Positions 19,396-56,761 of a DNA stretch of 64,000 nt are shown here, piece after piece. Below the pieces are notes generated by a model that saw nothing but the letters and a program-made list of their open reading frames with translations, did not search any database and was not told where the DNA came from. The position numbers and the translations under genes are program-made. The first letter of the stretch is position 1, and each line of letters begins with the position of its first letter. The stretch comes from Pseudomonadota bacterium (GTDB lineage Bacteria; Campylobacterota; Campylobacteria; Campylobacterales; Sulfurimonadaceae), in NCBI GenBank assembly GCA_043797085.1, contig JAZDQA010000008.1, forward strand, positions 64,001 to 128,000. Reading direction: 5' to 3'.

Positions 19396-19411
19396 TCGCA
19401 CAAATCTTGCA
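19396..19411 (+). promoter_or_regulatory. Non-canonical sigma54-type promoter for the nifN operon
   Basis: TCGCAC-AAATC-TTGCA (CG-N10-GC), ending 26 nt before ATG 19438. Confidence 0.7.
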
Positions 19412-19437
19412 ATACAACTTTTAATCAAGGAGTTGCC

Positions 19438-20736
19438 ATGGAATTCTCCCTCAGCAAACACGAACATAAGCCTCTTCAAGTCAACCCGATCAAACACTCT
19501 CAGCCTATGGGAGCGACGCTTGCATTTTTAGGGGTAAAGGATTGTATGCCTCTTATGCATGGTGCTCAGGGGTGTGCGTCGTATACAAAGGTCTTTTTTA
19601 CCCGACATTTCAACGAACCTATCGCGATTAACAACACCTCGGTGAGCGACATCACTGCCGTTTTGGACGGTGGAGATTACTCGATATTGATGGCGATTGA
19701 GAATATCCAAAACAAAGAGAAAAACCTCAAACCCTCTATGATCGGTCTACATACGACAGGATTGACGGAGACTAAAGGGGATGATGTGCGCGGTGTGGGG
19801 ATGCATATTGAGATTCCGTATGTGTTTGTCAATACTCCCGATTATGAGGGGGGGATGGAGAGTGGCTGGGCGCTTACAGTGAGCGCGATGATCGAACAGC
19901 TCACTGTTTCTGCTACCGAGACCAAACCAAATAAACTCGTATTTCTTCCCCATTTGAGTACGCAACCGATTGAGGTGGAGAAGATCAAAGCGATGTGTGA
20001 GGATTTCGGGTTTGAGACCTACGCGCTCCCTGATCTTTCGACTTCACTGGACGGGTATTGGGAAGCGGGGCAGGGGAAACTCTCTAACGGCGGGATAACG
20101 GTCGATCAGATTCGTGATTTAGCCTCCTCTAGCGTTGTGGTCTCTATCGGTGCATCGATGAAAAAAGCGGCTTTGGCACTCCAAAAAAAGAACCCTGCGA
20201 TTGAACATATCCATTTTGATCATTTGATGGGATTGGATGGGTGCGACAATTTTGTAAGTGCATTGATGAAAATCCGACAAGATGAGCCAAAACCGATGAT
20301 AAAGCGGTGGCGTTCACGTTTGCAAGATGCGATGCTCGATTCGCACTTTCTCATCGGGAGTTCCCATTTCGTCATCACGGGTGAACCGGATATGCTGGCG
20401 GGAATGTGTGCGTTGATACGCAGTGTCGGCGGAACCATCGATGCAGCGGTATCTACGACGTTTAGTGATTCGCTGCATCTGATCGAAGCGGAGAATATTT
20501 TCGTTGGGGATTTGGAAGATGCACGACGCTTTTTTGATAAAGCGGATATGGTGATCAGTAATTTTCATGCAGAACGAATCTTGCATAGTTATCACGATAC
20601 GGCATTGGTAATACGAGGTTTCCCCAATTATGAAGAGTTAGGGAATCAGCTTAAAAACGATCAGCTGTATGAGGGAAGTACGTACTTTTTATTTGAAATA
20701 GCCAATGCACTCAGAAAGGTCAAACATGAACACTAA
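19438..20736 (+). CDS. nifN: Nitrogenase FeMo-cofactor scaffold beta subunit NifN
   Basis: NPIKHSQPMGA, HGAQGCASY, RHFNEPI; RBS AAGGAG before ATG 19438 (ORF track start is further upstream). Confidence 0.93.
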   Translation: MEFSLSKHEHKPLQVNPIKHSQPMGATLAFLGVKDCMPLMHGAQGCASYTKVFFTRHFNEPIAINNTSVSDITAVLDGGDYSILMAIENIQNKEKNLKPSMIGLHTTGLTETKGDDVRGVGMHIEIPYVFVNTPDYEGGMESGWALTVSAMIEQLTVSATETKPNKLVFLPHLSTQPIEVEKIKAMCEDFGFETYALPDLSTSLDGYWEAGQGKLSNGGITVDQIRDLASSSVVVSIGASMKKAALALQKKNPAIEHIHFDHLMGLDGCDNFVSALMKIRQDEPKPMIKRWRSRLQDAMLDSHFLIGSSHFVITGEPDMLAGMCALIRSVGGTIDAAVSTTFSDSLHLIEAENIFVGDLEDARRFFDKADMVISNFHAERILHSYHDTALVIRGFPNYEELGNQLKNDQLYEGSTYFLFEIANALRKVKHEH

Positions 20737-21178
20737 AATCACAATAGAGGGAAATGACATGATGGATAGCGCTTTGCGAGTTGCTTTTGCAACCAAAGAT
20801 ATGGAAGAGATCAACGCCCACTTCGGAGGGGCAAAAGAGTTTGTGGTGTACAACGTTTCTAAAGACGGTTATGAAGTTTCTGAGGTGATTAAAACCGACA
20901 GTACTGATCCCGAGGATGATGATAAAACCGATTATCGTGTTCGTGCATTGAAAGGTGTCAACATCATGTACTGCGAGAGTATCGGCGGTACGGCGGCGGC
21001 AAAAGTGATCCGTGCAGGGATTCATCCGATGAAAGTGAGTGAATCAACGTTAATCGAAGATGTCCTCAAGACTTTAGTAGGAATGATTAATGGCAATCCG
21101 CCACCGTGGATAAAACAGATTATACAAATGAAAACCGAACACGATGTTCGACAAGACCGATGGGCAGTGGGCGAATGA
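20726..21178 (+). CDS. nifX: FeMo-co carrier protein NifX
   Basis: RVAFAT, INAHFG, IGGTAAAKVIRAGIHP, PPPW; follows nifN. Confidence 0.9.
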   Translation: MNTKITIEGNDMMDSALRVAFATKDMEEINAHFGGAKEFVVYNVSKDGYEVSEVIKTDSTDPEDDDKTDYRVRALKGVNIMYCESIGGTAAAKVIRAGIHPMKVSESTLIEDVLKTLVGMINGNPPPWIKQIIQMKTEHDVRQDRWAVGE

Positions 21179-23416: not shown

Positions 23417-23436
23417 TACGTATATATACGCATTTT

Positions 23437-23511
23437 GTCATTCCGTGCTACGACACGGAATCCAGTGCTCTTAAATCCAGGAGATGGATCCCGTATCAAG
23501 TACGGGATGAC
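23437..23511. repeat. REP-like inverted palindrome pair
   Basis: GTCATTCCGTG..CACGGAATCC, spacer, GGATCCCGTA..TACGGGATGAC. Confidence 0.85.
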
Positions 23512-23570
23512 GAGAAATCTGCCTCTTTTTTAATCACTTATATCTTTCATAATCCTCTATAATACTTATT

Positions 23571-23586
23571 GAGAACAAAATATGCA
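23571..23586 (+). promoter_or_regulatory. Non-canonical sigma54-type promoter upstream of rpoN
   Basis: GAGAAC-AAAAT-ATGCA (AG-N10-GC). Confidence 0.68.
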
Positions 23587-23624
23587 GTCTCTTGGATAGA
23601 TTTATAGATTTTAGGTGGATTATT

Positions 23625-24890
23625 ATGCAAACAACTCTCTCTTATAAACAAAAACAACTCCCACGACTTTCGATGCAGACATGGCTTCCATTGTTGCAAT
23701 GTTCCCTCAATGATCTTGAAAAACATTTACAAGTTATAACCAATGAAAATCCATGTATAGAGATGAAATCAGGTTTTGAAGAGTCCAATGCACAAGCAGG
23801 AGGTGCATCGGCGTACGGTGCATTTCAAAACTATGTTTCGAATGCTTCGAGTGATCAGATTGAATGGCTTAGTATCTCTTCGACTTCATTGTATGAAAAA
23901 CTGGATGAGCAAATTGTAGCACCACTTTTTCCAACCCCAATATCTCAAAAAATTGCTCGACAGATCATCTATTACATCAGTGATGAGGGATATTTTGAGG
24001 GAAATGTGGAAGAGATCGCCCAGCAATGTGATACGGATTCTCATACGGTTGAGCGTGTACGTCAACGGTTTGCGCATTTAGAGCCTTCCGGCGTGGGAGC
24101 GTGTGATTACAAAGAGTCCTTTTTGTTTCAGCTCAATGATTATGAACTGGATGATGATTTGAGTATCTTGCTCTCTGCTATGATTTTACAGTTCGATAAG
24201 ATGGAGAAATTTATCAAAAACCCTCGTTTTGGAGATGCAAAACACGTACTGCAACATCTCAAAAATCCTCCGGCGTTGGAATACATGGAGCCTGAAACGC
24301 AAATTATTCCTGATTTATTTGTCGAGTTTTCAGGATCGGAGTTGAACATTCGGATTAATCATACTTTTTATCCCGATTTAAAAGTCAGTATGATCGATAA
24401 GTACGATAATTTTGCCAAACAAAAATTCAAAGAGGCACGCGAACTCGTCAAACTTCTCGATTTGCGCAAAGCAACTCTCTATAACGTTGCCTTGGTATTG
24501 ATCGAGAAACAGTACAGCTTTTTTATGGGAGGAGAACTTAAACCGCTTCGCCTCCAAGATGTTGCCGATGAACTGGGCTTTAATGAATCCACGATTTCCA
24601 GAGCAATTTCGGATAAATACATGCAAACTGAGCGAGGGTTGTATCCCTTTAAAGATTTTTTCTCCAACTGCATCGGAGAAGTATCGACTTCAGAGATTAA
24701 ACACTTTTTGAAACGGCTTGTTTTGAGTGAAAATAAAGATGATCCGTTTAGTGATAAAACACTGCATGAGATGATCGAAGAGCGATTTGGGGTAAAAATG
24801 GTACGACGGCTTATTGCTAAATATCGTCAAGAACTTGATATTCCATCGTATAAAGAACGATTGTTTTTATATAAGCTAGAGCTGCTTTAA
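23625..24890 (+). CDS. rpoN: RNA polymerase sigma54 factor, nif-linked, with variant RpoN box
   Basis: Q/L-rich region I, ENP, EPSGVGA, HTH LKPLRLQDVADELGFNESTISRA, PFSD, RpoN box VRRLIAKYR; likely start ATG 23625. Confidence 0.93.
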   Translation: MQTTLSYKQKQLPRLSMQTWLPLLQCSLNDLEKHLQVITNENPCIEMKSGFEESNAQAGGASAYGAFQNYVSNASSDQIEWLSISSTSLYEKLDEQIVAPLFPTPISQKIARQIIYYISDEGYFEGNVEEIAQQCDTDSHTVERVRQRFAHLEPSGVGACDYKESFLFQLNDYELDDDLSILLSAMILQFDKMEKFIKNPRFGDAKHVLQHLKNPPALEYMEPETQIIPDLFVEFSGSELNIRINHTFYPDLKVSMIDKYDNFAKQKFKEARELVKLLDLRKATLYNVALVLIEKQYSFFMGGELKPLRLQDVADELGFNESTISRAISDKYMQTERGLYPFKDFFSNCIGEVSTSEIKHFLKRLVLSENKDDPFSDKTLHEMIEERFGVKMVRRLIAKYRQELDIPSYKERLFLYKLELL

Positions 24891-25103: not shown

Positions 25104-25490
25104 ATGGCAAAAAGAGTAATAATCGTCGATGATTCCAGAGCAGTAGTTGCGACGGCAGAATTAGCACTGGATGGGTTGATTAGCAGTGGTGTGATCGAGT
25201 TTAAATCGTATTTGAATCCATTGGAGTTATTGGGTGCATTGCAAGCGGGAAACGAGAATTTCGATCTGCTCATCAGCGATGTTAATATGCCTGAGATGAA
25301 TGGTTTGGATTTGGCGCGATTGATTAAAGCCGATGATCGATACAAAACAAAACCCATCATTATTTTGACTACCGAAAGTTCAGAACAGATGAAAATGGTC
25401 GGTAAAGAGATCGGAGTTACAGGATGGATGGTCAAGCCTTTTAGTGAAGAGAAGCTGGTGAAATCCCTCAAAATGGTATTGGGGGTATAG
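25104..25490 (+). CDS. cheY: Chemotaxis response regulator CheY
   Basis: Single REC domain: VDD, DVNMP, LTTE, VKPF. Confidence 0.88.
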   Translation: MAKRVIIVDDSRAVVATAELALDGLISSGVIEFKSYLNPLELLGALQAGNENFDLLISDVNMPEMNGLDLARLIKADDRYKTKPIIILTTESSEQMKMVGKEIGVTGWMVKPFSEEKLVKSLKMVLGV

Positions 25491-25492
25491 CA

Positions 25493-25990
25493 ATGGAGTC
25501 CAATATCGTCCAGTCACGAAAGGAACGCTACCTCACTTTTTTCCTAGGAGAGGAACAATACGGAATCTCAATCGATCGGATCAAAGAGATCATTGCGATG
25601 ATGAAAGTGACTCAAGTGCCTAAAACTCCCCACTATATGCGTGGCGTGATCAATTTGCGCGGATCCATCATCCCAGTAGTGGATACTCGTCTTCGTTTTG
25701 GGATGGAGCCGCAAGAAGAAACGATGCACACGGCAATCATCATTGTCGAAGTGGAAAAAGTAAATATTGGATTTATCGTGGATCGTGTCGAAGAGGTTGC
25801 CTCTATCGATACGGCACGTTTGAGTGAGCCTCCGAAATTTGGCAGTCATATCGATACTGATTTCATTTGCGCTATGGCCCAGATCGAAGAAAATGTTGTG
25901 ATGATTTTGGATGTAATCAAGCTTTTTGAAGCCGATGAGTTGGTGAGTTTAGAACAAATACAGCAAATACAAATGCGTGAGGGAGAATGA
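25493..25990 (+). CDS. cheW: Chemotaxis coupling protein CheW
   Basis: YLTFFL, GVINLRGSIIPVVD, GFIVDRV. Confidence 0.93.
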   Translation: MESNIVQSRKERYLTFFLGEEQYGISIDRIKEIIAMMKVTQVPKTPHYMRGVINLRGSIIPVVDTRLRFGMEPQEETMHTAIIIVEVEKVNIGFIVDRVEEVASIDTARLSEPPKFGSHIDTDFICAMAQIEENVVMILDVIKLFEADELVSLEQIQQIQMREGE

Positions 25991-25991
25991 G

Positions 25992-27629
25992 ATGAATTGG
26001 TTAGAAAATATGGTGCTACAAACTAAATTGGTATTATTAACCGCAGTTATGATGATTGCTCTTGCTACGTTAGGGTATTTGGGGTACAGTACAACACAAA
26101 AATGGGAAAGTGGAATCACAGAAGTAGGGGGAGTAAAGCTTCCATCTATCGTTGGTATCATGGAAATGCGTACGGGGATCAATCAAGTAGTGATTCAGCA
26201 AAATCGTGTACGAGCACTTAAAGATGATCCAATGATGAACGCAAAGCTTGAAGATGCTCGCGAAAAGCTTGTTAAAGGATTTGAGCGGTTTGACAAAGGG
26301 TATAAAATTTATGCACCGCTTCCGCAAACGCCCGAAGAGGCTATCGAGTGGAAAAGTTTTGAAGAAAATTTTGGTAAATGGAAAGAAATGAGTTTATCGT
26401 TTCGTGCCAATACTCTGGTTCCTTTGATAAACAATACCGATCCGGCAATGGTAGATGTCTATTTCGAGCAAATGAAAGAGTTTATTGAATCAAGCCGTGC
26501 TCCTCGTCAGGCGGCATTGGAAAGTATGGATAAAATCGCTAAGATTAATATTGATGGTGCAGATGCAGCGGTTAAGACGGCACAAAAAGATTCAAGCAGT
26601 GCGGTACAAATGACCATTCTAATCATCCTTATTTCTTTTGCAATATCGATACTATTGGCAATACTGATCATTCGTTCCATTACCCGCTCTATCACATCAA
26701 GCGTTACTTCTATCCGTGATGGCGCGATGCAAATCACTTCGGCTTCCGATCAAGTAGCTGCATCGTCTTCCTCTCTTGCACAAGGTGCCAGTGAACAAGC
26801 GTCAAGCGTTGAAGAGGTAAGTGCAACATTAGAAGAGAGTACGGCGATCAATACACAAAATACCGATAACGCACGTCAAGCCGATATTTTGGCTAAAAAT
26901 GCCAATGATTCTGCACGTGCAGGATTTGAAAAAGGGGAACAGCTTTCTCGTTCCATGCACGCTATTACCGATTCAGCGGCAAAAATATCAGGAATCATAA
27001 AAACTATCGATCAAATCGCATTCCAAACCAATCTTTTGGCGCTCAATGCAGCCGTTGAAGCGGCGCGTGCGGGTGAACATGGTTTGGGCTTTGCCGTTGT
27101 AGCTGATGAAGTGCGTAATCTCGCACAACGTGCGGCATCTGCAGCAAAAGAGACCTCGGTGATTATCGAAGAGGTTGTCTCTCAGATCAAAGAGGGAAAT
27201 CAAATCGCCCTCGCAACCCATACATCATTCCAAGAAATTGTCGAACAGTCGAAAAAAGTGTCTAATCTTATAGGTGAAATCGCCATTGCCGGTAAAGAAC
27301 AAGCAGAGGGTATGACCCAAATCAATCAAGCTATGGGGCAAGTCGATCAAGTGACACAGCAAGTTGCTGCAAACTCGGAAGAAGCCGCTGCGGCTGCTGA
27401 AGAGCTTAATGCTCAAGCTACTTCGATGATGGAAACTGTACGAATACTTGCTCAAATGGTTGGAATGACAACAGATGCTCCAGCAACAAAAGCAAAACCG
27501 CTCCGTCATTTAGAGATGAAAGCTCCAGTAGCTCAACGTAGAACTATGAATATTCCTCAAAGCAGAGGCTCTTCCACTAAAGCGGATGATATTTTTCCTC
27601 TCCATGAAGATGATTTGAAAGAGTTCTAA
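25992..27629 (+). CDS. Methyl-accepting chemotaxis protein (four-helix-bundle-like sensor, short signalling domain, acidic C-terminal DLKEF)
   Basis: Two TM helices; IAFQTNLLALNAAVEAARAGEHG.GFAVVADEVR. Confidence 0.93.
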   Translation: MNWLENMVLQTKLVLLTAVMMIALATLGYLGYSTTQKWESGITEVGGVKLPSIVGIMEMRTGINQVVIQQNRVRALKDDPMMNAKLEDAREKLVKGFERFDKGYKIYAPLPQTPEEAIEWKSFEENFGKWKEMSLSFRANTLVPLINNTDPAMVDVYFEQMKEFIESSRAPRQAALESMDKIAKINIDGADAAVKTAQKDSSSAVQMTILIILISFAISILLAILIIRSITRSITSSVTSIRDGAMQITSASDQVAASSSSLAQGASEQASSVEEVSATLEESTAINTQNTDNARQADILAKNANDSARAGFEKGEQLSRSMHAITDSAAKISGIIKTIDQIAFQTNLLALNAAVEAARAGEHGLGFAVVADEVRNLAQRAASAAKETSVIIEEVVSQIKEGNQIALATHTSFQEIVEQSKKVSNLIGEIAIAGKEQAEGMTQINQAMGQVDQVTQQVAANSEEAAAAAEELNAQATSMMETVRILAQMVGMTTDAPATKAKPLRHLEMKAPVAQRRTMNIPQSRGSSTKADDIFPLHEDDLKEF

Positions 27630-27630
27630 G

Positions 27631-27894
27631 ATGCAATTCGACGGAGATGTCCTCACGATAGGATTGGATATGTCGATGGAAGAGATTCGAGAGTTTGAAG
27701 AGTTTGTTCGACCTCGTTTGGAGTATATAGAAACCATTGAAGCCGAAGATGGGACGCAGCTGCGAAACAGTGCATTGTTAGCACTGTTGATGAGTTTAAA
27801 ACGGACAAAAAAAGAGCTGAAAATACCTTTTATCGAACGTGGTGAAGCAGCTTCGGCTGCTTACGGAACGTTGCATTGGATGTGTCATGACTAA
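27631..27894 (+). CDS. Small chemosensory-operon protein (STAS-like by position)
   Basis: 87 aa, tightly coupled between MCP and cheA. Confidence 0.55.
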   Translation: MQFDGDVLTIGLDMSMEEIREFEEFVRPRLEYIETIEAEDGTQLRNSALLALLMSLKRTKKELKIPFIERGEAASAAYGTLHWMCHD

Positions 27895-29965
27895 ACAAGA
27901 ACAAGTCAAAGCGATTTTTATCGAAGAAGCGGGTGAAATCATCGAAAAATTGGATGTCGATATTCTCCGATTTGAAGAGAACTCGGCTGATTTTGATCTA
28001 CTGAATGAGATTTTCAGAGGAGTTCATACCCTAAAGGGAAATGCCAATGCGTTTGGCTTTACCCGTTTGGGAGAATTTGTACACCATTTCGAAGATGTTC
28101 TCGACCACTATCGCAGTACCAAAGAGGATGTAGAAGAGCATCATCTGGAACTCTTTGTCGGTAGTGTGGATGTTATAAAAGAGGTCATGACATGTGAACT
28201 CGATGCACTTCCTGATTTGCCCTTGGATTATGCAGGATGCTTGGAGAAGATCAAACACCTCATAGCGTCGAAAAAAAATAAATTCGTAGAACCGAGTATA
28301 GAAGTAAATATGCAAGTATTTAATGATTTAGCCACAGAATTTGCTTTTGATGATATTCAGCTTCAAGATACAGCAGTAGAGAAATGTATTGAAATCCATC
28401 AAGCTTTACGTACTGAGGGGCTAAATCTCTATCGCATCGAGTTAACGCTCGATGGTGATTGCTATAAACGAGGGTTTGATCATCTTTTGTTTTTGAAGTT
28501 ATTGGCCCAAAATGCAACTGCATTGGAAAGCTTCTTTGAGCTTGACAATGTTCATTCTTTGGATACCTTCAGCAGTGATGAAAATGCGATCACGAGAGTA
28601 AGTGCAATTCTTTTGAGTGCTCAAACACCCAACGATGTAGCAGAGAATTTTGAATATTTATCCGATCATGAATACAGCATCGTGCTCATTGACCCTATTG
28701 TTGTGTCTGTAGAAAAAGTACAAGCGGTTGTCGTTGAAAAAAGTCCCGATACAGAGGTGGCAAAAACATCCTCTGCGAATGCACCAAAATCTACTATTCG
28801 TATTGATACGTTCAAACTTGACGAGCTTTTTGATTCGGTTGGTGAACTGGTAATCGCCCAAAACTTCATCGCCCAAAATGAAAAAATACGTGCCATCGAA
28901 GATGAATCGATCAGCCGAGCCATTGAAACGCTGTCCAAAATCACAAAACGAATTCAAGACCGAGTTATGAGTCTGCGAATGGTCGCGATACGCGATACTT
29001 TTGACAAGATGAAGCGAGTGGTTCGCGACACGTCTAAAAAGACGGGAAAAGAGCTTCATCTAAACGTCCAGGGTGAAGAGACAGAAATCGACAAAACGAT
29101 GATAGACAGTTTATCGGATCCATTGATCCATATTATCCGAAATGCTATCGATCACGGGCTTGAAGCGGATGGCGCTGAGAGACTGAGTGTCGGTAAAAAA
29201 GTAGAAGGGACAATAACGCTTCGTGCCTATCATAAAAGTGGCAGTATCGTTATCAGTGTCAGTGACGACGGACGAGGAATCAACAAAGAAAAAGTATTGA
29301 AAAAAGCGATTGAGCGAGGGATAATCACGGGGGATGAAAATTTGACCGATTCTCAGATCTTTGCACTCATTATGCAGCCGGGATTCTCAACAGCGGATGC
29401 TATCAGTGATCTCTCCGGACGCGGAGTTGGTTTGGATGTGGTGAAAACCTCGATCGAAAAACTGCGCGGGAAGATCGAAATTGAATCCAAAGAGGGAGTA
29501 GGGACAACATTCTCCATGGTTCTTCCTCTGACGTTGGCGATTATAGATGGAATGCTGGTTCAAGCTGCCGGTGAGATTTATATTATTCCGACTCTCAGTG
29601 TGGTGGAATCTTTTCGACCCGAACGTGAAATCGTCCATGCCCTCAAAGAAAAAGGGGAATTTGTCTCTCTGCGAGGACAGCATATACCGGTTATCCGTCT
29701 CAGTGATATATTTGAACTCCCCACTAAGCGAATCGAGCCGTGGGAAGGGATTTTAGTCTGTGTCGAAACGGAAGCCGGGCGTATTGCTATCATGGTGGAT
29801 GAACTTGTAGGTCGGCAGCAAGTGGTGATAAAACCCTTGGGCAAGGCATTGGCGAAACTTAAAGAGATCACAGGTGGTGCAATTTTAGGAAGCGGTGACA
29901 TTGCTCTTATTCTTAATGTCGATGAACTGCGTCCTCTAATCGAGGCTCCTCATGGTGGAAATTGA
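27887..29965 (+). CDS. cheA: Chemotaxis histidine kinase CheA
   Basis: HTLKG HPt domain, HIIRNAIDHG, DDGRG, GRGVGLDVV, C-terminal CheW-like domain; start ATG 27887. Confidence 0.95.
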   Translation: MTKQEQVKAIFIEEAGEIIEKLDVDILRFEENSADFDLLNEIFRGVHTLKGNANAFGFTRLGEFVHHFEDVLDHYRSTKEDVEEHHLELFVGSVDVIKEVMTCELDALPDLPLDYAGCLEKIKHLIASKKNKFVEPSIEVNMQVFNDLATEFAFDDIQLQDTAVEKCIEIHQALRTEGLNLYRIELTLDGDCYKRGFDHLLFLKLLAQNATALESFFELDNVHSLDTFSSDENAITRVSAILLSAQTPNDVAENFEYLSDHEYSIVLIDPIVVSVEKVQAVVVEKSPDTEVAKTSSANAPKSTIRIDTFKLDELFDSVGELVIAQNFIAQNEKIRAIEDESISRAIETLSKITKRIQDRVMSLRMVAIRDTFDKMKRVVRDTSKKTGKELHLNVQGEETEIDKTMIDSLSDPLIHIIRNAIDHGLEADGAERLSVGKKVEGTITLRAYHKSGSIVISVSDDGRGINKEKVLKKAIERGIITGDENLTDSQIFALIMQPGFSTADAISDLSGRGVGLDVVKTSIEKLRGKIEIESKEGVGTTFSMVLPLTLAIIDGMLVQAAGEIYIIPTLSVVESFRPEREIVHALKEKGEFVSLRGQHIPVIRLSDIFELPTKRIEPWEGILVCVETEAGRIAIMVDELVGRQQVVIKPLGKALAKLKEITGGAILGSGDIALILNVDELRPLIEAPHGGN

Positions 29966-30776
29966 GTTAAAACCGGAAGAATTTGCACTTTTTCGTCGTT
30001 ATATTTATGACAAAGTCGGAATCGCATTATCTGAACAAAAAAGTACATTGGTAAAAGGACGGCTGAACAAACGGCTCAATCAGTTGGGTTTACACTCATT
30101 CCGTGCTTACTATGATTATTTGATCGTGGAGGAATCGGGCGAAGAATTAGCATTGTTTATCAATGCCATCTCGACCAATGTCACCTCCTTTTTCCGTGAA
30201 GGGGCGCAATGGAAATGGCTGGAAACGTATTTGCCCGCACTCATTGCGTCAAAGCGGGAGAAAAAAATTCGTATCTGGTCGGCTGGATGTTCCAGTGGTG
30301 AAGAACCTTATACTATTTTGATGTTTTTACAGCATCATTTGAGTGATTTCGAGCAATGGGATATTAAGATTTTGGCAACCGATATCTCGGCTAAAGTCCT
30401 CTCAAAAGCCATTGCAGGCAAGTATGATGCCAAGCAAGTAGAATCGCTTTCTAAAGAGATTCTCCATCGTGCCTTTGATAAAGTAAAAACCCAACAAGGT
30501 TTGACGTATCAGATAGCACCTCATTTACGCCAGAAAGTTCTGTTTCGTCTTTACAATCTGGTAACCGATCCATTTTTTTTCAAAAATAAATTTGACATGG
30601 TTTTTTGCCGTAATGTGATGATTTACTTTGATGATACGACCCGTCATGAACTAATCGGCCGTTTTACCACGGTATTGCCAAAAGGAGCTCCTCTTTTTCT
30701 AGGGAGTTCCGAATCTTTGACCACCCATCGCGAGACACTAAAGCTTTTGGGTTCGTCGATCTATCAACGTTTATAA
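29952..30776 (+). CDS. cheR: Chemotaxis methyltransferase CheR
   Basis: TNVTSFFRE, WSAGCSSGEEPY, CRNVMIYF. Confidence 0.95.
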   Translation: MVEIELKPEEFALFRRYIYDKVGIALSEQKSTLVKGRLNKRLNQLGLHSFRAYYDYLIVEESGEELALFINAISTNVTSFFREGAQWKWLETYLPALIASKREKKIRIWSAGCSSGEEPYTILMFLQHHLSDFEQWDIKILATDISAKVLSKAIAGKYDAKQVESLSKEILHRAFDKVKTQQGLTYQIAPHLRQKVLFRLYNLVTDPFFFKNKFDMVFCRNVMIYFDDTTRHELIGRFTTVLPKGAPLFLGSSESLTTHRETLKLLGSSIYQRL

Positions 30777-30786
30777 AAGGGCTCCT

Positions 30787-32139: not shown

Positions 32140-32143
32140 TAAC

Positions 32144-33420: not shown

Positions 33421-33424
33421 TGGA

Positions 33425-40762: not shown

Positions 40763-40778
40763 TGCATATTTTGTTCTC
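40763..40778 (-). promoter_or_regulatory. Non-canonical sigma54-type promoter for the P-II gene
   Basis: Minus strand GAGAAC-AAAAT-ATGCA, identical to the rpoN site. Confidence 0.7.
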
Positions 40779-40948: not shown

Positions 40949-40964
40949 AAGAACACCATTTGCA
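40949..40964 (+). promoter_or_regulatory. Non-canonical sigma54-type promoter for the nifU operon
   Basis: AAGAAC-ACCAT-TTGCA (AG-N10-GC). Confidence 0.7.
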
Positions 40965-44853: not shown

Positions 44854-44879
44854 GAGACTAAATAAAAAAGGAAGCTATT

Positions 44880-47103: not shown

Positions 47104-48078
47104 ATGACTACAGAGATAGTTCCTATTACGCACGCAACACAAGTTGGTACCCTTTTTGATGAGAATTATGTGTGCGGTATTTTTGATGGTGATGTGATAC
47201 TGCAAAAAGTCTTAGAATATATTGCATACAACAGTTCGGATACGGTTATTATTACACAAAAGTCTTCTGCAGTAGGTATTCTGACACAAAAAGATATCTT
47301 ACGAGCACTTTGTAATTTTGATAATACCGGTCTTCCTGTTAAAGATTTTATGACTTCTCCCCTTCATACTTATGATGCGTCAATGAGTATTTCAGATGTT
47401 TTAGATGCTATTGACGTGACTGATTATAATAAAATTGTTGTCATAAAAGATAAACATATCATGGGTATAATCGATAAGCGTGATCTTCACTCTATATGTT
47501 ATGCTCAGTTGAACCCTTTAATCAAACACGAGTACAACATGATTCATTCATTGATGGATTTAGTCGGTGAGGGTGAGCGTGGATTGCTCAAAATGGCAAC
47601 AACGGATGTACTAACCGGAATCGGAAATCGACGATTGTTTGAAGAAATCATGCAAGCACATCAATCATTAGGTAATAGGTACGATGTGCCATTATTTTTA
47701 CTTTTATTTGATATTGATAATTTCAAAAGTATCAATGATACCTTTGGTCATAATGTAGGGGATTCTGTTCTAAAAGAATTAGTGGTTTTGGTGGAAAAAT
47801 CGATTCGTAAATCGGATATTTTTATTCGTTGGGGCGGGGAAGAATTTGCGATTTTGCTCCGTTATACGGAGCCAATGACGGTTATGAAAATTGCCGATCA
47901 AATTCGTAGTCGGATTGATAAAAATAGTTTTGAAACGATTGTTCACGTAACGTGCAGTTTTGGTTTAACATCGATTTTACCTAATGAAACTCTTGAAAGT
48001 ATATTTGAACGTGCCGATAAGGCACTTTATCGAGCAAAATCAGACGGTAAGAATGTCGTGCGAATGGAACTTCCTTAG
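47104..48078 (+). CDS. CBS-pair GGDEF diguanylate cyclase (paralog of the previous gene)
   Basis: Same architecture; RKSD and RWGGEEF. Confidence 0.88.
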   Translation: MTTEIVPITHATQVGTLFDENYVCGIFDGDVILQKVLEYIAYNSSDTVIITQKSSAVGILTQKDILRALCNFDNTGLPVKDFMTSPLHTYDASMSISDVLDAIDVTDYNKIVVIKDKHIMGIIDKRDLHSICYAQLNPLIKHEYNMIHSLMDLVGEGERGLLKMATTDVLTGIGNRRLFEEIMQAHQSLGNRYDVPLFLLLFDIDNFKSINDTFGHNVGDSVLKELVVLVEKSIRKSDIFIRWGGEEFAILLRYTEPMTVMKIADQIRSRIDKNSFETIVHVTCSFGLTSILPNETLESIFERADKALYRAKSDGKNVVRMELP

Positions 48079-49703
48079 ACGTCTATCCCGTACTGCTTGA
48101 TCTTATACCCGATTTGTCGAGCTGTCATTCCTAGTAATCGTGCCGCTTTGGTCTGAATACCGTGTGAATCTATTAATGCCTGAACAATCGACTCTTTTTC
48201 CAATTCCAAAAGGCTCTTTTTGGTCATTGGTGCACCACTTTCGTGAGTGGGTTGCGGTGCAGGAGTTGTAATGTACACCGGTGGTGCTATCGTTGGTACT
48301 TCCGGCTGCATGTAGAGCTTTTGGTAGTTAAACGGCAATACATGATTGAGCATCTCCGGCTGAAGCTCTCCGTCGGGACAGATGAGAACGATTCGCTCCA
48401 TAGTATTTTGAAGTTCTCTGATATTTCCCGGCCACGGATATTCTAACAATACCTCCATAGCCCCTTTGGTAAAAGACATATTTTTGCGATGTTCTTTCAT
48501 AAAGCGGTGGAGATAGTGCTCAATGAGCAATTTTACGTCCTCATAGCGCTCACGAAGCGGAGGAAGATTGAGAGGGATGACGTTAAGGCGATAAAACAGG
48601 TCTTCTCGAAATTCACCTTTGCGTACCATATCTTCGAGATTACGGTTGGTAGCGGCAACGAGGCGGACGTTGGTTTTGATCGTTTTGTTCCCGCCTACAC
48701 GCTCAAACTCCTGCTCTTGCAAAATACGCAGTAATTTTACTTGGAGAGAGGGGGTAATGTCTCCGATCTCATCGAGAAACAGTGTCCCGCCATCGGCGAG
48801 TTCAAATCGTCCTTTTCTCAGTTCTCTCGCATCAGTAAAGGCTCCCTTCTCATGTCCGAAGAGTTCGGATTCGAGGAGTGTTTCGCTGATAGCAGCACAG
48901 TTGAGTTTGATAAACGGTCCGTTTTGACGACGGCTGAGATTATGAACCGCTGTGGCGATAAGCTCTTTACCCGTACCCGTTTCACCACGTATAAGAATAG
49001 TTGCATCAGTGGGTGCGACGGTATTGATCATCCCAAATACATGTTGCATTTTGGTACTTTTTCCGACAATATTTTCAAATTTGTAATCTTTTTGCATCTC
49101 TTCTTTGTAGTACGTTTTGAGTTCAGTGAGAGACTCTTTTTCTTTGGTAATGGTTTGCTGAACTTTCATCGAGCCTACGAAAAGTGTTCCGACTATGGTG
49201 AGCATTCGGACGATTTCGTCGAAATCCAAAGGGCTTTTTTTCCCGATATTCGCCGAAATAACCCCGATTACTTCTTCGTCTTGGAGTAGGGGAACCGCGA
49301 CGTAGGAGACCATTTGCGTCGAAATATGCCCCATTTTATTGAGATAATTGATGTTGTTATGGATGTTTTCGATCACGATAGGTTCACGGCTTTTCGCCGC
49401 TAATCCCGTAGCTCCTTCACCGAAACGGTAGGTTGCCATTTTCTTTTGATGCGATTCAAGGTCGATGGAAATGAGAAGCTCAAGCTCATCTTTATCCTCT
49501 TTCTTTTTGAAAAGAGCACACCGTTCGACATAGCCATGCTGTTTGAGTTTTCGCATAGATTTTTCGATACTTTCATGAATATCGACAGTACTCGTAAGAA
49601 TGACAGCGATTTCATACAGTAAATTAATCTCTTTGTACGCAAATGTCAGTGCACAGGTCTGACATTCTTCTCTATTAGGGATATTGGGGCTGTAAGTCAT
49701 CAT
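48075..49703 (-). CDS. nifA: Nif-specific sigma54 enhancer-binding activator NifA (GAF-AAA+-HTH)
   Basis: GAF domain, GETGTGKE, ESELFGHEKGAFTDA, WPGNIREL, HTH QTKAARLLGMTARQIGY. Confidence 0.9.
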   Translation of the reverse strand: MMTYSPNIPNREECQTCALTFAYKEINLLYEIAVILTSTVDIHESIEKSMRKLKQHGYVERCALFKKKEDKDELELLISIDLESHQKKMATYRFGEGATGLAAKSREPIVIENIHNNINYLNKMGHISTQMVSYVAVPLLQDEEVIGVISANIGKKSPLDFDEIVRMLTIVGTLFVGSMKVQQTITKEKESLTELKTYYKEEMQKDYKFENIVGKSTKMQHVFGMINTVAPTDATILIRGETGTGKELIATAVHNLSRRQNGPFIKLNCAAISETLLESELFGHEKGAFTDARELRKGRFELADGGTLFLDEIGDITPSLQVKLLRILQEQEFERVGGNKTIKTNVRLVAATNRNLEDMVRKGEFREDLFYRLNVIPLNLPPLRERYEDVKLLIEHYLHRFMKEHRKNMSFTKGAMEVLLEYPWPGNIRELQNTMERIVLICPDGELQPEMLNHVLPFNYQKLYMQPEVPTIAPPVYITTPAPQPTHESGAPMTKKSLLELEKESIVQALIDSHGIQTKAARLLGMTARQIGYKIKQYGIDV

Positions 49704-49793: not shown

Positions 49794-49809
49794 TAGAACA
49801 TTATTTGCA
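49794..49809 (+). promoter_or_regulatory. Non-canonical sigma54-type promoter for the tpx operon
   Basis: TAGAAC-ATTAT-TTGCA (AG-N10-GC). Confidence 0.7.
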
Positions 49810-49842: not shown

Positions 49843-50391
49843 ATGAACATTACTGTCCATGGAGAAACAACATTATTAGAGGGCAAAGAGATGACCATCT
49901 GGCGTGAAGCTCCGGCAGCTCGTGTCACATCGTTAGATGGAACCCAAAACGTCATTGGGATGATTGCCCCGACTGCACAGTTGCTTATTGCTATCCCTTC
50001 GCTTAAAACCGAAGTGTGTTCATTGGGAGCTAAAAAGTTTAATGATCTCGTTAAACAGTTCAAAAAACTCAAAACCGTAATGATTACGACGGATGATATC
50101 GAATTTGTGAACGATTTTGTCACACGTGAGGGGATTGATGCAGCTGACATCGTTATCGATACCAATCGTGATTTTGCTAAACGTTATGGATTACTCATAA
50201 CCGAAGGGAAGTTAAAGGACCGTCTTGCACGTGCTGTATTTGTCATCGATCAGGAAGGTATGATCAGCTATAAAGAAGTCGTTCCTGAAATTACTGATGA
50301 AGTAGATTACGATAAATGCATTGAGGCAGTGGATAAAGCGGCTAACTTCAAGAAAAAAGGGCATGAACACGAAAACTGGATGGGTGTCTAA
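49843..50391 (+). CDS. tpx: Thiol peroxidase (Tpx-type peroxiredoxin)
   Basis: PSLKTEVC (PxxxTxxC), LARAVFVID, EVVPEITDE.DY. Confidence 0.82.
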   Translation: MNITVHGETTLLEGKEMTIWREAPAARVTSLDGTQNVIGMIAPTAQLLIAIPSLKTEVCSLGAKKFNDLVKQFKKLKTVMITTDDIEFVNDFVTREGIDAADIVIDTNRDFAKRYGLLITEGKLKDRLARAVFVIDQEGMISYKEVVPEITDEVDYDKCIEAVDKAANFKKKGHEHENWMGV

Positions 50392-50405
50392 CTAAGGAGC
50401 GTATC

Positions 50406-50840
50406 ATGGTAGAGCAATATTTGATGTGGTTAAATAATCATAATTTTTCAGGTGAAGATTTGGAAGAAAAAGGATTTAATGGTAATACCCCTTTGCTGTT
50501 AGCAGCCTTGGAAGGCAATGCCATGATGGTATCTCGTTTTATTGAAGCAGGTGCCAATTTGTATGCTATTAATGGTGATTTTAACGGGGTATTATTTAAT
50601 GCCTGTTATTCCAATTGTCCTGAAGTTATCCGAATTTTGATTGATGCCGGTGCAGATATTGATGATACCAATGAAGAGGGGACGACAGCACTTATGTATG
50701 CAGCATCCGCGTCACGCGTTGAGTGTGTGAGCATGTTACTGGCATTGGGTGCTAATACGCAATTGCACAATGAAGATGGATTCAGCGCGATCGAACTGAC
50801 GAGCAATCGTGATGTTTTTCGGCAACTTCGTAGTGCGTGA
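50406..50840 (+). CDS. Ankyrin repeat protein
   Basis: GNTPLLLAA, GTTALMYAA repeats. Confidence 0.88.
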   Translation: MVEQYLMWLNNHNFSGEDLEEKGFNGNTPLLLAALEGNAMMVSRFIEAGANLYAINGDFNGVLFNACYSNCPEVIRILIDAGADIDDTNEEGTTALMYAASASRVECVSMLLALGANTQLHNEDGFSAIELTSNRDVFRQLRSA

Positions 50841-52041
50841 ACAAACCCTTCTCACTCCCGAATGGGTAGCGCAAAAGGCGACCTTTTTGGATTGGGATTC
50901 TCAACCCTCACTTTTTAAACACTATCCACATTTTTGTTATCGTACTCCTTTAAGCAATCACCCATCACTTCAATGGTTAATGGAATCGAGATGCATAACG
51001 TCCCAGCAGATGGTTGCCCATAAACCCTATTATCGTCTTAATGTCCCCTCGGCAGGAAATCTACAGCCTATTGAAATCTATGTGCAGATTCGAAACCTCT
51101 CAGGTTTGCTGAGCGGACTGTATCATCTGGATATATTGACCCAAGAACTCGTTTTAATCACTGAGATAGGGGCAGCAGGAATTGAGCCCTACTTAGAACT
51201 GGATCATCGTTTTACTGGCTGCATTGTGATGCTGTCAGTCGTTCCTTTTCGCTCATCATGGAAGTATGGATTGCGAGCTTGGCGGTATCTCTATCTCGAT
51301 CTTGGACATCAAATCGGTGCGCTTTCTTCATCCGTACGACATTTTGGGCTTAATCTGACAAAAATGTTCACACTCGATACAGATGCGCTTAATCGTGTTA
51401 TGGGAATGGGTGAGGATGAACGAATCATGGCGGTCTATGGAGTCGGTGAAAAGTCAACGCGACTCGCAAAACGGCTAGAGGAACCATTGATGAGCGTACA
51501 ACCGACGGATTACACCATGCGTGATACTTTATTAGTAGACACCATTAAAGTAGCGCCTCTCTACAGTGAAATTCCTAACAGTATGAAGATGGATGATTTT
51601 CTGGCTCTTAACAGTACTCGCAGAAGTGCGCGGGGATTTAATGCCCATGCGATGAAGGATACAGATATTTTGGCATTGATGAGTATAAAAGCTCATGTGT
51701 CCCTCGAAGTCATACCAATCCTCTTGCAAGCACACAGTATGCAATTAGGTTTGTATCGAAACGGAGAATGTACCGTGAGTGGAAATTTTAATTCTGAAGT
51801 AGTTCATTTGCTTTTAGATCAGCGTTTTATTTCAGGATCAAATATGGTACTATTAATTTATGCGGTGGATTTTAAGGCGCACTCACATATAGAGGCTGGG
51901 ATTTATGCTCAGGAGATTTATACCGTGTGTGAGTATCATGGAGTCGGATGCAGTGGAATAGGGGCATTTTATGACAATATAGGCTCCCAATGGTCGAACA
52001 ATCCATTGCTGTATGCAGTGGCAATAGGAGGAAAATTATGA
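50809..52041 (+). CDS. SagB/nitroreductase family protein (start may be GTG 50833)
   Basis: PSAGNLQP, SWKY..RAWRY..LDLGH, RRS, SGIGAFYD. Confidence 0.82.
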   Translation: MMFFGNFVVREQTLLTPEWVAQKATFLDWDSQPSLFKHYPHFCYRTPLSNHPSLQWLMESRCITSQQMVAHKPYYRLNVPSAGNLQPIEIYVQIRNLSGLLSGLYHLDILTQELVLITEIGAAGIEPYLELDHRFTGCIVMLSVVPFRSSWKYGLRAWRYLYLDLGHQIGALSSSVRHFGLNLTKMFTLDTDALNRVMGMGEDERIMAVYGVGEKSTRLAKRLEEPLMSVQPTDYTMRDTLLVDTIKVAPLYSEIPNSMKMDDFLALNSTRRSARGFNAHAMKDTDILALMSIKAHVSLEVIPILLQAHSMQLGLYRNGECTVSGNFNSEVVHLLLDQRFISGSNMVLLIYAVDFKAHSHIEAGIYAQEIYTVCEYHGVGCSGIGAFYDNIGSQWSNNPLLYAVAIGGKL

Positions 52042-53126
52042 TTATCGGAGTTCCAAAAGAGATTAAAACCGACGAGTTTCGCGTAGGTATTACCCCATCG
52101 GGTGTGATGGAGTGCATCAAAGCAGGACACAGCGTATTTGTTGAATTCGGTGCAGGTGTAGGGAGCGGATTTACAGATGCTCAGTACAGTGATGCCGGTG
52201 CAGTTATTCTAAATACAGCGGATGATATTTATGCGAGTGCAGATATGATCTTCAAAGTCAAAGAACCGATTGAGGTAGAGTATGCGAGATTAAAAGAGGC
52301 TCAGATACTATTCACCTATCTCCATCTAGCAGCGGATAAGCGCTTAACTGAAGTGTTATGTGAGAAAAAAATCACGGCATTGGCATACGAGACGCTGAAA
52401 GTTGGGCGACGGCTTCCTTTGTTGGAACCGATGAGTGAAATTGCCGGACGGATGGCGACACTGTTTGGAGCAGTTCATCTGGGACGTTACAATGGCGGGA
52501 GCGGACGACTGCTTGGCGGTGCCGTTGGAGTGGAGACAAATCGTGTTGTGGTACTGGGTGCGGGAGTTGCGGGCAAAGCAGCAGCGGATGCAGCGGCCGG
52601 ATTAGGTGCTGAAGTGACCATGTTTGATATTAATATCGAACGCTTAACCTATTTACGTGATGTAATGAGCCCAAGAGTCTCGATGATGTACTCGACACAT
52701 GATAGCATATTAAATAGTATCAAAGATGCTGACTTGGTTATCGGTACAGTATTGCTCCCCGGTGCAAAAGCTCCTAAGCTCATTACCCGAGATATGCTAC
52801 GTATCATGAAAAAAGGGTCAGTTTTAGTCGATGTTTCCATCGATCAGGGGGGATGTTTCGAGACCTCTCATGCTACTGCGCACTCTCATCCGACGTTTGA
52901 AGTGGAGGGAATCGTCCACTACTGCGTCGCCAATATGCCAGGAATGTATCCGCGCACCTCGACGATTGCCCTGACGAATGCGACATTACCGTATGCACTA
53001 AAAATTGCTTCGACACCGTTGGAGAAATTGTTTGAAGATCCTTCTATGAAGGATGCTCTAAACACCTATAATGGTAAAGTAACGAATGAAGCAGTTGCAA
53101 TCGCCCATGGAATGCACTATGAATGA
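52038..53126 (+). CDS. ald: Alanine dehydrogenase
   Basis: IGVPKEIK..EFRV, KVKEP, FTYLHLA, PMSEIAG, DQGGC, VANMPG. Confidence 0.95.
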   Translation: MIIGVPKEIKTDEFRVGITPSGVMECIKAGHSVFVEFGAGVGSGFTDAQYSDAGAVILNTADDIYASADMIFKVKEPIEVEYARLKEAQILFTYLHLAADKRLTEVLCEKKITALAYETLKVGRRLPLLEPMSEIAGRMATLFGAVHLGRYNGGSGRLLGGAVGVETNRVVVLGAGVAGKAAADAAAGLGAEVTMFDINIERLTYLRDVMSPRVSMMYSTHDSILNSIKDADLVIGTVLLPGAKAPKLITRDMLRIMKKGSVLVDVSIDQGGCFETSHATAHSHPTFEVEGIVHYCVANMPGMYPRTSTIALTNATLPYALKIASTPLEKLFEDPSMKDALNTYNGKVTNEAVAIAHGMHYE

Positions 53127-53436
53127 AACCGATAAAGCACACGAAATATTAGCGATTTACCGTTTTTACAAAATGGACGGTAAGTTGTATCACTACGACG
53201 AAGATGATCGCCTCGATGAACTGTTTGATGCAGTTGTACATGCCATCAATGATTGCGGTATGCTCAAACCCCTCTTGCCTAGAGAAGAGTTTGTTGTCCC
53301 TTGTCGGGGGATACTGAACAAAGAGCGTGCATGGTTACAGCGGTTTGAACATCAAGACACAAAAGCTTTTTTTCTGAGTGATATTTATGACTTTTTGAAG
53401 CTGTTTACAGGGCGAACGAAGTTGCGAGTAGGTTAA
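53119..53436 (+). CDS. Hypothetical protein
   Basis: 105-aa ORF overlapping the ald stop. Confidence 0.65.
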   Translation: MNETDKAHEILAIYRFYKMDGKLYHYDEDDRLDELFDAVVHAINDCGMLKPLLPREEFVVPCRGILNKERAWLQRFEHQDTKAFFLSDIYDFLKLFTGRTKLRVG

Positions 53437-53437
53437 C

Positions 53438-53453
53438 TCGAACACATTATGCA
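53438..53453 (+). promoter_or_regulatory. Non-canonical sigma54-type promoter for the flavodiiron gene
   Basis: TCGAAC-ACATT-ATGCA (CG-N10-GC) in a 42-bp intergenic gap. Confidence 0.62.
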
Positions 53454-54714: not shown

Positions 54715-56606
54715 TACTCAATAAACGTGAGTGATAGAACATCATTTTTATAGTTATCTTCTACTTTATATTCACGGTAGCCTTGAGATTGTGCAATACC
54801 TAAAAGATATTTTTTTCCGTCATAAGTGACAAAATGATGTGTTGTATTTTTGGAATTAAACCGTAAGATTTTCTCATCTAATTCCATTTTCTCCATAGGT
54901 TTAGCATTGAGATAGCTTGTGGATAATACAATTCCTTTGCGATCTATAAAACATGAAAAACCGCTTTTTTGTGATGGGAAGCTATCGTTTAATATTGCAT
55001 TAAATTGTGGAGCTGCATCGAAAACAATACCGATTCCCCCTAAAATTTTATTTTTATTTTGAATTGTTGCACTGTAGATATAGGTTGCTTCGTTCTTGTA
55101 AAATGGTGTATTTTCAAATGGACTGACAAAATAGTTTTGTGAAGAAGTATTGTTAAAGATTTTACTGATGTAGTCCCCTGAAACTTTTTTACCGATGAGG
55201 GTTGAATCGTTTGATGAAGCGATAATAGTTGAATGACTATCATAAATAAAGAGGTTCGTATATACGGTATAAAGGGAATTAATATACGCTAGAACGTCAT
55301 GCAGTCGTTGGCTGTCAGGAATGTCTCGTGAGAGTTCTTTTTCAAATATCGGAGTCATCGCCCACCATCGACAGTCATTTGCCCGTTCGTATAGATTTCG
55401 ATCCATAATTTCGATAGCAAGATTTGCGGATGCTTTTGCATCAAAAATAAGTCCATCCATGATGGTGTTTTCAAGATTAGTTACTGTGTCTTTAATCGTG
55501 GAAAGGATGGAAGAGCTGACGGTACGTAAATTATCCAGGACGGGTGTTAGGACATATACCCGTTCTTTGGATGCGATGAGCTCACCATTAATGATAACAT
55601 CACTCAAATCTTCAATCACATCATCCGCTTTTCGTATAATAGATTTAATGTTATCGTCCAAAGTGCTTTTTTGACTGATAGGGTCTTTTATAGGCGGATT
55701 TTGGGTACTTCTTTTGACATTGATATATGCAATACTATTCCAGGATGTGCCGTAGTATCCTTCGTAGCCTTTTGTTTTTGCTGATATAAAAAGATTCCCA
55801 TCATGATATGAAATTTCTGAATTAATCATTCCTTTTCGATACTCTTTTAATATTTGGTTCGATTCATTAGAAGAGGAGCTGATCACCTCTTTACCGTCGG
55901 TAAAAAAGATATGTTCATTCGGATTTAATAGGGATGAAAAAATACGATTCATCTCATCTTCAAAACGAAAACATAAAATTAAAACACCTATTGCTTGATT
56001 ATTATGAGTGATTTTTTGGGCGAATAAGAGTGTTTTATTTTGAGTTGAAAAAAGATCGCTATGGGCATATTGTTCAATGTATCCATCATTTTGTAAAGCA
56101 TTATTTATAATGGGATCGGAACTAGCGGTAATTGAATTCGTTTCATTAATATTGAGTCGAATGTTCCCTTGCGTGTCGGTGATGATTATTTCATTGTAGA
56201 CACTGTATTTCATCGTGTATTCAATCAAACGTTCTTGCAGTGCTTCTGAAGTGTTATTTTCATTTAAAAATTCAATTATGGCTGTATCGGTTGCTAAAAA
56301 GCCGACATCAGCTGTTCGTTCAAAGAGATTTCGGATTAGGATATCGATACTGATCTGGGCTTTAGCGCGGAGCTCTTCGGTATATTTTTTTAAATTTTCA
56401 CGAATCAGGAGCGGGATAAGCTCTGTTTTTAAATCACTAAAGGTCTCGATCGTTTTTTCGGTAAAAGAGAAAAGATTTGCCGCTTTTTCGAGAGCACAAA
56501 TTTTTCCTGTGAGAATAATTTTTTTTAGGAATCGGTTTTGATCATCGAGAAGTTTTACACTGTTTTCAATAAATGGAAAAATTGTTAAAAATTTTGAATA
56601 GTCCAT
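54711..56606 (-). CDS. Soluble tandem Cache-like sensor protein
   Basis: Internal duplication RNLFERTADV..YSVY / RNLYERANDC..YTVY; no TM helix or output domain evident. Confidence 0.65.
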   Translation of the reverse strand: MDYSKFLTIFPFIENSVKLLDDQNRFLKKIILTGKICALEKAANLFSFTEKTIETFSDLKTELIPLLIRENLKKYTEELRAKAQISIDILIRNLFERTADVGFLATDTAIIEFLNENNTSEALQERLIEYTMKYSVYNEIIITDTQGNIRLNINETNSITASSDPIINNALQNDGYIEQYAHSDLFSTQNKTLLFAQKITHNNQAIGVLILCFRFEDEMNRIFSSLLNPNEHIFFTDGKEVISSSSNESNQILKEYRKGMINSEISYHDGNLFISAKTKGYEGYYGTSWNSIAYINVKRSTQNPPIKDPISQKSTLDDNIKSIIRKADDVIEDLSDVIINGELIASKERVYVLTPVLDNLRTVSSSILSTIKDTVTNLENTIMDGLIFDAKASANLAIEIMDRNLYERANDCRWWAMTPIFEKELSRDIPDSQRLHDVLAYINSLYTVYTNLFIYDSHSTIIASSNDSTLIGKKVSGDYISKIFNNTSSQNYFVSPFENTPFYKNEATYIYSATIQNKNKILGGIGIVFDAAPQFNAILNDSFPSQKSGFSCFIDRKGIVLSTSYLNAKPMEKMELDEKILRFNSKNTTHHFVTYDGKKYLLGIAQSQGYREYKVEDNYKNDVLSLTFIEY

Positions 56607-56745
56607 GTTTCTCCATTTTATATATTTTACTAATAATTGTATTGTAAATAGTAATATAGCAGATAATTGGAATTTTTTTATACATGAAATAATTTTATTA
56701 ATGATTATTATTTAATCATCTACTGTTTTAGTTCTTATGGAAGAA

Positions 56746-56761
56746 TCGAACAATAATTGCA
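56746..56761 (+). promoter_or_regulatory. Non-canonical sigma54-type promoter for the nifQ operon
   Basis: TCGAAC-AATAA-TTGCA (CG-N10-GC). Confidence 0.7.

Follow-up and report, generated by a model that had tools for sequence, protein, structure and literature searches.

A nif-linked sigma-54 paralogue and a candidate class of nif promoters without G at -25 in a Sulfuricurvum genome

Introduction

Are the nif genes of this bacterium read by a sigma-54 factor of their own, from promoters that depart from the usual -24 element? The question is raised by a 64,000 bp window (G000:C8:64001-128000; "the window" denotes this whole stretch of DNA) from a genome of 2.40 Mb in 14 contigs with ~41% G+C, whose host we treated as a sulfur-oxidising Sulfuricurvum. 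A sigma-54 gene (rpoN) lies among the nif genes of the window. An earlier reading of the sequence (the original prediction) described seven -24/-12 promoters in this region as lacking the GG, and proposed that they form an orthogonal, nif-dedicated system with the co-located RpoN, whose RpoN box is altered. Across bacteria, the -24 GG and the RpoN box are treated as near-invariant. We conclude, with a probability of roughly 0.65, that the seven sites are sigma-54-type promoters of a NifA-dependent nif regulon of 15 sites without G at -25, that the nif-linked RpoN reads them, and that a canonical paralogue together with the activator FlgR runs the GG promoters.

Seven promoter-like sites in the nif region

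All seven sites are present where they were predicted, upstream of nifN, rpoN, a P-II gene, nifU, tpx, fprA and nifQ:

19396..19411, + strand: nif-class -24/-12 promoter of nifN (TIGR01285), with CG at -25/-24
23571..23586, + strand: nif-class promoter of the nif-linked rpoN, with AG at -25/-24
40763..40778, - strand: nif-class promoter of a P-II-family gene (40331-40726, minus strand)
40949..40964, + strand: nif-class promoter of nifU (41001-41978), divergent from the P-II promoter
49794..49809, + strand: nif-class promoter of the thiol peroxidase (tpx) operon
53438..53453, + strand: nif-class promoter of a flavodiiron (FprA-like) gene
56746..56761, + strand: nif-class promoter of a NifQ-domain gene

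In each case the 3' end of the site is 26-40 nt from a plausible start codon that is accompanied by a Shine-Dalgarno-like run. In the -24 element of all seven, the second G (-24) is retained, and A or C stands in place of the first (-25). None of the sites has GG, as had been claimed, but "lacking the GG" was an overstatement, as the G at -24 is invariant. The pattern GMAC-N5-WTGCA matches the window 12 times against 2.10 expected, and none of 100 shuffled sequences reached 12, so the motif is enriched here. Seven of the 12 matches are the sites listed above and five are within open reading frames (ORFs). Among assembled RNA contigs from four runs, which show no transcript starts or ends, one spans the fprA promoter.

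We took the intragenic matches (20432, 20572, 29363, 46869 and 51730) to be chance occurrences, with the possible exception of the one at 20572, which may be an eighth site:

20570..20585, + strand: possible eighth site, in the 3' end of nifN and 119 nt before the nifX ORF; uncertain, given the long distance

In sister genomes, a promoter is found 31-36 nt before nifX.

Two promoter classes across the genome

A weight matrix trained on nothing but the seven window sites was run over both strands of the genome with a cut-off of >=11.5 bits. The 70 matches comprise the seven training sites, eight new intergenic sites and 55 matches inside ORFs. Every one of the eight new intergenic sites is <=130 nt upstream of a start codon on the same strand, and all precede nif-region genes. 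In detail, the genes behind them are nifH-D-K, nifB-nifV and an epsilon-type nifS; ferredoxin and NifX-like genes; a small divergent ORF; an operon of SIR2-like, clpP and clpX genes; and, on a different contig, a nifE-like (nitrogenase-component-1) gene. The hits that had been predicted at nifH, nifE, nifB and nifS, with few elsewhere, were therefore all recovered. The operon of SIR2-like, ClpP and ClpX genes is located at G000:C8:159662-162313, with the nif-class promoter in front. The nifN gene (window 19315-20736) is without an adjoining nifE; the nifE-like gene is on contig C3 and has its own nif-class promoter.

The nif class thus consists of 15 sites in the genome, with the consensus [A/T/G][A/C/T]GAAC-N5-[A/T]TGCA. 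They are located 26-75 nt before start codons and occur in a single orientation only. The G at -24 and the TGC at positions 13-15 of the 16-mer are present in 15/15 sites, at a fixed -24 to -12 spacing; the GG at -25/-24 that is near-invariant in sigma-54 promoters is absent from all of them.

For comparison, we chose 14 sites by eye among 52 listed intergenic GG-N9-TGC sites near gene starts, and refer to these as the flagellar class. They have the form TGGAAC (or TGGAAT, TGGCTC, TGGTAC)-N5-TTTGCT with a T-rich spacer. The genes behind them encode FliD, a flagellin-N protein, FlgH, two rod proteins, a PseB-like dehydratase, an LPP20 lipoprotein and two D-Ala-D-Ala peptidases, among others. 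One site of this kind is in the window, where a canonical site had been reported:

14460..14475, + strand: canonical sigma-54 promoter of the flagellar/envelope class (GG, T at -11), preceding a VanY-type peptidase gene

The two classes differ completely at two positions. At position 2 (-25), G occurs in none of the 15 nif-class sites (A in 10, C in 4, T in 1) and in all 14 of the flagellar-class sites that were selected as described (Fisher's test, p = 1.3e-8). At position 16 (-11), the nif class has A in 15/15 and the flagellar class has T in 14/14.

Two sigma-54 factors and two activators in one cell

As the original prediction suggested checking, we counted the rpoN genes of the genome and identified two, the window copy and a second one, of flagellar type, at C8:33293-34507. 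The two proteins share 42% identity, and both match PF00309, PF04963 and PF04552 (the activator-interacting, core-binding and DNA-binding domains). The nif-linked RpoN scores 318 bits against TIGR02395, for which the cut-off is 277. The sigma-54 gene and the activator gene of the nif region are:

23592..24890, + strand: nif-linked rpoN, sigma-54 paralogue; RpoN box VRRLIAKYR; L at K. pneumoniae T457, Y at S470
48075..49703, - strand: nifA (GAF + AAA+ + HTH_8), presumed activator of the nif-class promoters

Alignments with relatives begin at about residue 7-12, so that the ATG at 23625 is the likely start of rpoN in place of the TTG at 23592. As the gene is preceded by a promoter of its own class, positive autoregulation is implied. 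On the coding strand between the ferredoxin gene and rpoN, we found no sigma-70-like promoter or terminator.

The canonical RpoN box is ARRTVAKYR, with Thr at 457. The box of the nif-linked protein is VRRLIAKYR and that of the second paralogue VRRTIAKYR, so the alteration claimed for the co-located RpoN is real. It consists of a change from Thr to Leu; both Arg residues, the Lys, the Tyr and the final Arg are retained. Numbered by alignment to the K. pneumoniae sigma-54 of solved structures, the nif-linked RpoN has Leu at T457, Tyr at S470 and Lys at N471, with D439, R455 and R456 unchanged, and the flagellar paralogue retains Thr at 457. There is thus no R456 substitution in the nif-linked protein. 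According to the portion of Xiao et al. (PMC2715252) available to us, D439, T457 and N471 are able to form hydrogen bonds with the -24 DNA, and a double substitution at 457/458 abolished both sigma-54 activity and DNA binding. Judged from these positions, the changes that the Sulfuricurvum/Sulfurimonas sub-clade has at 457 (L, V, S or A) and 470 (Y or F) probably relax the need for G at -25.

The genome encodes exactly two sigma-54 activator domains, those of NifA and of an FlgR-like protein. The window NifA scores 526.0 bits against TIGR01817, slightly below the 528.85 cut-off, and has the expected GAF-AAA+-HTH architecture. No nif-class site was found upstream of nifA. The FlgR-like activator has 384 residues in a receiver-AAA+ arrangement, ends at the lid domain and is without HTH_8, that is, without a DNA-binding domain. 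A dyad screen identified ACA-N4-TGT in 6/14 regions upstream of nif-class promoters, against a background of 0.039 per region (for example, window 40779-40948); these dyads are candidates for a different NifA site.

The nif-linked RpoN is the most likely reader of the nif class. The cell appears to run two parallel sigma-54 circuits with one activator each, whose promoters differ at -25 and -11. In one, NifA and the nif RpoN would act on promoters with a non-G base at -25 and A at -11, including that of rpoN itself. In the other, the enhancer-independent FlgR and the canonical RpoN would act on GG/T(-11) promoters of flagellar and envelope genes. FlgR works without enhancers and would therefore be expected to fire any closed complex that it meets. 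Canonical sigma-54, in turn, is expected to stay off the GG-less sites because of its established GG dependence (PMC11999139; implied by PMC12096077; both as far as the accessible text goes). If it does, the nif genes would be shielded from FlgR. Exclusion in the reverse direction would depend on the -12/-11 region or on which activator works with which sigma-54, as is the case in Cereibacter (Rhodobacter) sphaeroides. A stronger form of this proposal is that the system is a naturally evolved counterpart of engineered orthogonal sigma-54 factors, in which a remodelled box region (457, 470) freed the nif regulon from the -25 G and moved it onto promoters that are closed to the flagellar sigma-54 and shielded from FlgR. 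We put this forward tentatively and would give it somewhat less than even odds.

Promoters and RpoN proteins of relatives

Relatives were taken from an order-level sample of 401 genomes. Matches to the nif-linked RpoN occur in 301/401 genomes and nifH in 87/401. The close RpoN group (>=55% identity) includes about 22 genomes from five families and has S, V, L or A at 457 and Y/F at 470. In 22 relatives within the clade, residue 457 is S, V or A and never T, apart from G135. More distant nif-linked RpoNs (43-51% identity) mostly combine T457 with S470 and are often encoded beside nifH. A quick tree of 51 RpoNs splits four flagellar-type proteins from 47 nif-linked ones with a support of 99, and within the latter the Y/F470 proteins form one sub-clade (support 87-94). 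By its placement in this tree, the RpoN of the window is a member of a nif-associated RpoN lineage in Campylobacterales. Of the 39 genomes of family f10, 15 have an rpoN match, and exactly these 15 also have nifH, which rpoN often adjoins; in this family sigma-54 looks like part of the nif gene set. Two genomes have two nif-type rpoN copies each, G337 (91% and 73% identity) and G207 (77% and 61%).

We scanned 89 loci of these relatives with NNG[AC]A[CT]-N5-[AT]TGC[AT], which ignores positions 1 and 2, and retained the matches that lie 10-130 nt upstream of a start codon. We excluded duplicates, matches within another called gene, and matches in front of nifD/nifK or of genes with no annotation, and G135 was put in the Y/F470 group by hand. 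In the Y/F470 genomes, 45 of 54 nif promoter candidates are without G at position 2; by promoter form, 13 of these genomes have no GG, four are mixed and one has GG only (n=2). In the S470 genomes, the corresponding number is 2/27, both of them doubtful internal hits, and the other 25/27 have GG; 14 of these genomes have GG only and two are mixed. Two genomes without a fetched nif-linked RpoN contributed three GG sites. The 74 public loci that surround close relatives of the rpoN gene gave 57 sites before rpoN, with A at position 2 in 56, T in one and G in none.

In these comparisons, GG-less nif promoters are limited to the sub-clade with changed 457/470 residues, save for the two doubtful S470 hits. 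In sister genomes, orthologous nif genes carry TGGAAC-N5-WTGCA in the equivalent place. Where sister genomes keep GG, the base at -11 still separates the two classes (A vs T).

Genomes with a single sigma-54 bear on which protein reads which form. In G396, G313 and G390 (99% complete), the sole sigma-54 is of the close-group RpoN type and the promoter candidates are all AG (2/2, 2/2 and 4/4, respectively). Therefore, if the nif genes of these three depend on sigma-54 at all, RpoN of the close group recognises sites without GG. The complete, single-contig genomes G228 and G366 each encode one sigma-54 and one activator. Their nifH and P-II genes, and also nifB in G228, are preceded by GG, but rpoN by AG.

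Evidence against the proposal and alternative explanations

Several observations weigh against the reading of the nif class as promoters of a dedicated RpoN. The S457/F470 protein is associated with GG promoters in G228 and G366 and with AG promoters in Sulfurimonas-like genomes. As this protein serves both forms, the residues permit a change of the -25 base and do not dictate it; the reading of -25 looks relaxed rather than switched. G135 is an exception within the close group, as it combines T457 with Y470 and has mixed promoters. Because the genomes concerned are kin and form one clade in the quick tree, the RpoN change and the GG-less promoters count as approximately one evolutionary event. 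Relatives that have two paralogues and a T457/S470 nif RpoN keep GG, so the loss of GG is not needed for the coexistence of two sigma-54 factors. We considered whether GG loss is tied to the presence of a second sigma-54 and rejected this, as there is no clean association with paralogue number: the 13 Y/F470 genomes without GG include 10 with >=2 sigma-54 matches and three with one (G396, G313 and G390); G228, G366 and G381 have a single sigma-54 and mostly GG; and G306 and G135 have two sigma-54 matches and are GG-only (n=2) or mixed. The position of rpoN behind its own promoter class would be a difficulty for the onset of its expression. Finally, the classical NifA site TGT-N10-ACA was found at only one of the 15 nif-class promoters (<=260 nt upstream; background 0.048 per 260 nt).

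These results change two parts of the original prediction. Promoter and RpoN variants do co-vary to the extent that GG-less promoters are found only in the changed sub-clade, but the S457/F470 protein serves GG promoters as well. Similarly, the orthogonal nif-dedicated system is consistent with the two rpoN genes, the two activators, the motif that marks nif genes and the altered contact residues, and less so with G228 and G366, in which one sigma-54 uses both GG and AG.

The alternative that survives best is that insulation of the two circuits rests chiefly, as it does in C. sphaeroides, on the -12/-11 region and on activators that are each restricted to their own sigma-54, and that the loss of the -25 G was incidental and tolerated. 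The complete separation of the classes at -11, which persists in the sister genomes that keep GG, agrees with it. So does C. sphaeroides itself, where the specificity of RpoN1 and RpoN2 lies in the -11 position and the cognate activators, according to the available part of PMC11999139. Sigma-54 factors and activators are also present in 1:1 numbers in six genomes (the host and five relatives). It leaves unexplained, however, why G is absent from position 2 at 15/15 sites here, why 56 of 57 public rpoN promoters have A, and why the change is confined to a clade with altered -24 contact residues. We consider it unlikely, if a serious contender.

Returning to the dedicated nif RpoN, one may ask whether its specificity needs to have changed at all. 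Either sigma-54 might use both promoter forms, with the -25 G having drifted away in an AT-rich genome where strong activation by NifA tolerates a weak -24 element. No single base has taken the place of G at position 2, both forms occur in G228 and G366 with one sigma-54 each, and the probability of finding no G in 15 sites from base composition alone is ~0.035; this last value also tempers the weight of the missing G in the reading that we prefer. Such drift is at odds with the GG dependence reported for canonical sigma-54 in the accessible text of PMC11999139 and PMC12096077. Furthermore, the flagellar promoters of the same genome kept G at 14/14 sites, S470 genomes have GG at 25/27 nif promoters, and the RpoN changes are in or beside DNA-contact positions. 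We regard drift without a change in specificity as improbable.

That the motif is the binding site of some other nif regulator and no promoter, to which the missing canonical GG might point, is very improbable indeed, as it is non-palindromic, is spaced exactly like a sigma-54 promoter with an invariant G...TGC, occurs in one orientation only at 26-75 nt before starts, and is replaced by canonical TGGAAC-N5-TTGCA at the sister-genome orthologues.

Other genes and repeats of the window

The operon behind the tpx promoter (window 49843-53436) is unusual; it encodes the thiol peroxidase, an ankyrin-repeat protein, a SagB-type dehydrogenase-like protein, alanine dehydrogenase and a 116-residue ORF of no family. 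Between rpoN and the P-II gene, the nif region includes a complete chemotaxis-like signalling cluster (window 25104-40273). It encodes CheY, CheW, MCP, CheA, CheR, a PAS protein, a histidine kinase, CheD, CheB and more response regulators and kinases, and may provide signal input to nif control.

A short inverted repeat recurs in nif intergenic DNA (window ~23430-23560, 40832-40870 and 44825-44857). Its very high summed depth in the four runs, many loose ends and joints between copies indicate that it is a widespread repeat. Near the start of the window, we identified an RHS/YD-repeat protein of 1426 residues with an RHS-associated core domain (2004-6284), after which come unannotated ORFs.

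Implications and comparison with known systems

If a dedicated RpoN does read the GG-less nif promoters, sigma-54 promoter recognition can evolve, and residues besides R456 could be used for rewiring it. The reason for the change would be that the nif regulon shares the cell with an activator lacking a DNA-binding domain. Standard sigma-54 promoter models, in which GG is required, will overlook the nif regulon of Sulfuricurvum, Sulfurimonas and their relatives, which are important dark diazotrophs of groundwater and sediments.

Our literature search found no study that joins rpoN, nifA and Campylobacterota, and none on GG-less nif promoters in Sulfuricurvum or Sulfurimonas; the available part of one Sulfurimonas species description mentions nifA once and rpoN never. 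In Rhodobacter capsulatus, rpoN (nifR4) is located in the nif cluster and is used for nif expression, and its promoters keep GG. C. sphaeroides uses RpoN1 with NifA for nif genes and RpoN2 with FleQ for flagella (Poggio et al. 2002, 2006, as cited in the accessible text of PMC11999139). In that system as in ours, one cell has a sigma-54 for nif genes and another for flagellar genes, each working with a separate activator (assignments that are presumed here), and the promoter classes differ at -11. As far as that source describes them, both classes of C. sphaeroides keep GG, whereas here -25 is never G in the nif class and the nif paralogue has substitutions in the region of its RpoN box. Our system also belongs to a Campylobacterales lineage and has a flagellar activator without a DNA-binding domain.

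The flagellar promoters of the host, TGGAAC-N5-TTTGCT, match the Campylobacter sigma-54 promoter consensus. The sigma-54/FlgR system of Helicobacter and Campylobacter, to the extent set out in the available text of PMC9696931, is matched by the second paralogue and the FlgR without a DNA-binding domain. In that account, Helicobacter and Campylobacter have a single sigma-54 and no nif genes, in contrast to the two sigma-54 factors and the nif genes found here.

A nif cluster has been run separately from the host sigma-54 by means of engineered orthogonal variants (R456H/Y/L) that are paired with rewired -24 elements (PMC12096077, in the part accessible to us). These variants share with our system a box-changed sigma-54 that is paired with nif promoters departing from TGG. 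As described there, the variants are laboratory mutants of R456 for which the second G was changed, whereas the case here is natural, with changes at 457/470, loss of the first G and both arginines kept. In the accessible discussion of that 2025 work, the natural pairing of R456 with TGGCA is presented as the one that evolution settled on. The Sulfuricurvum system is therefore of a known kind, that of specialised sigma-54 paralogues, and its new feature is a natural -24 element without GG.

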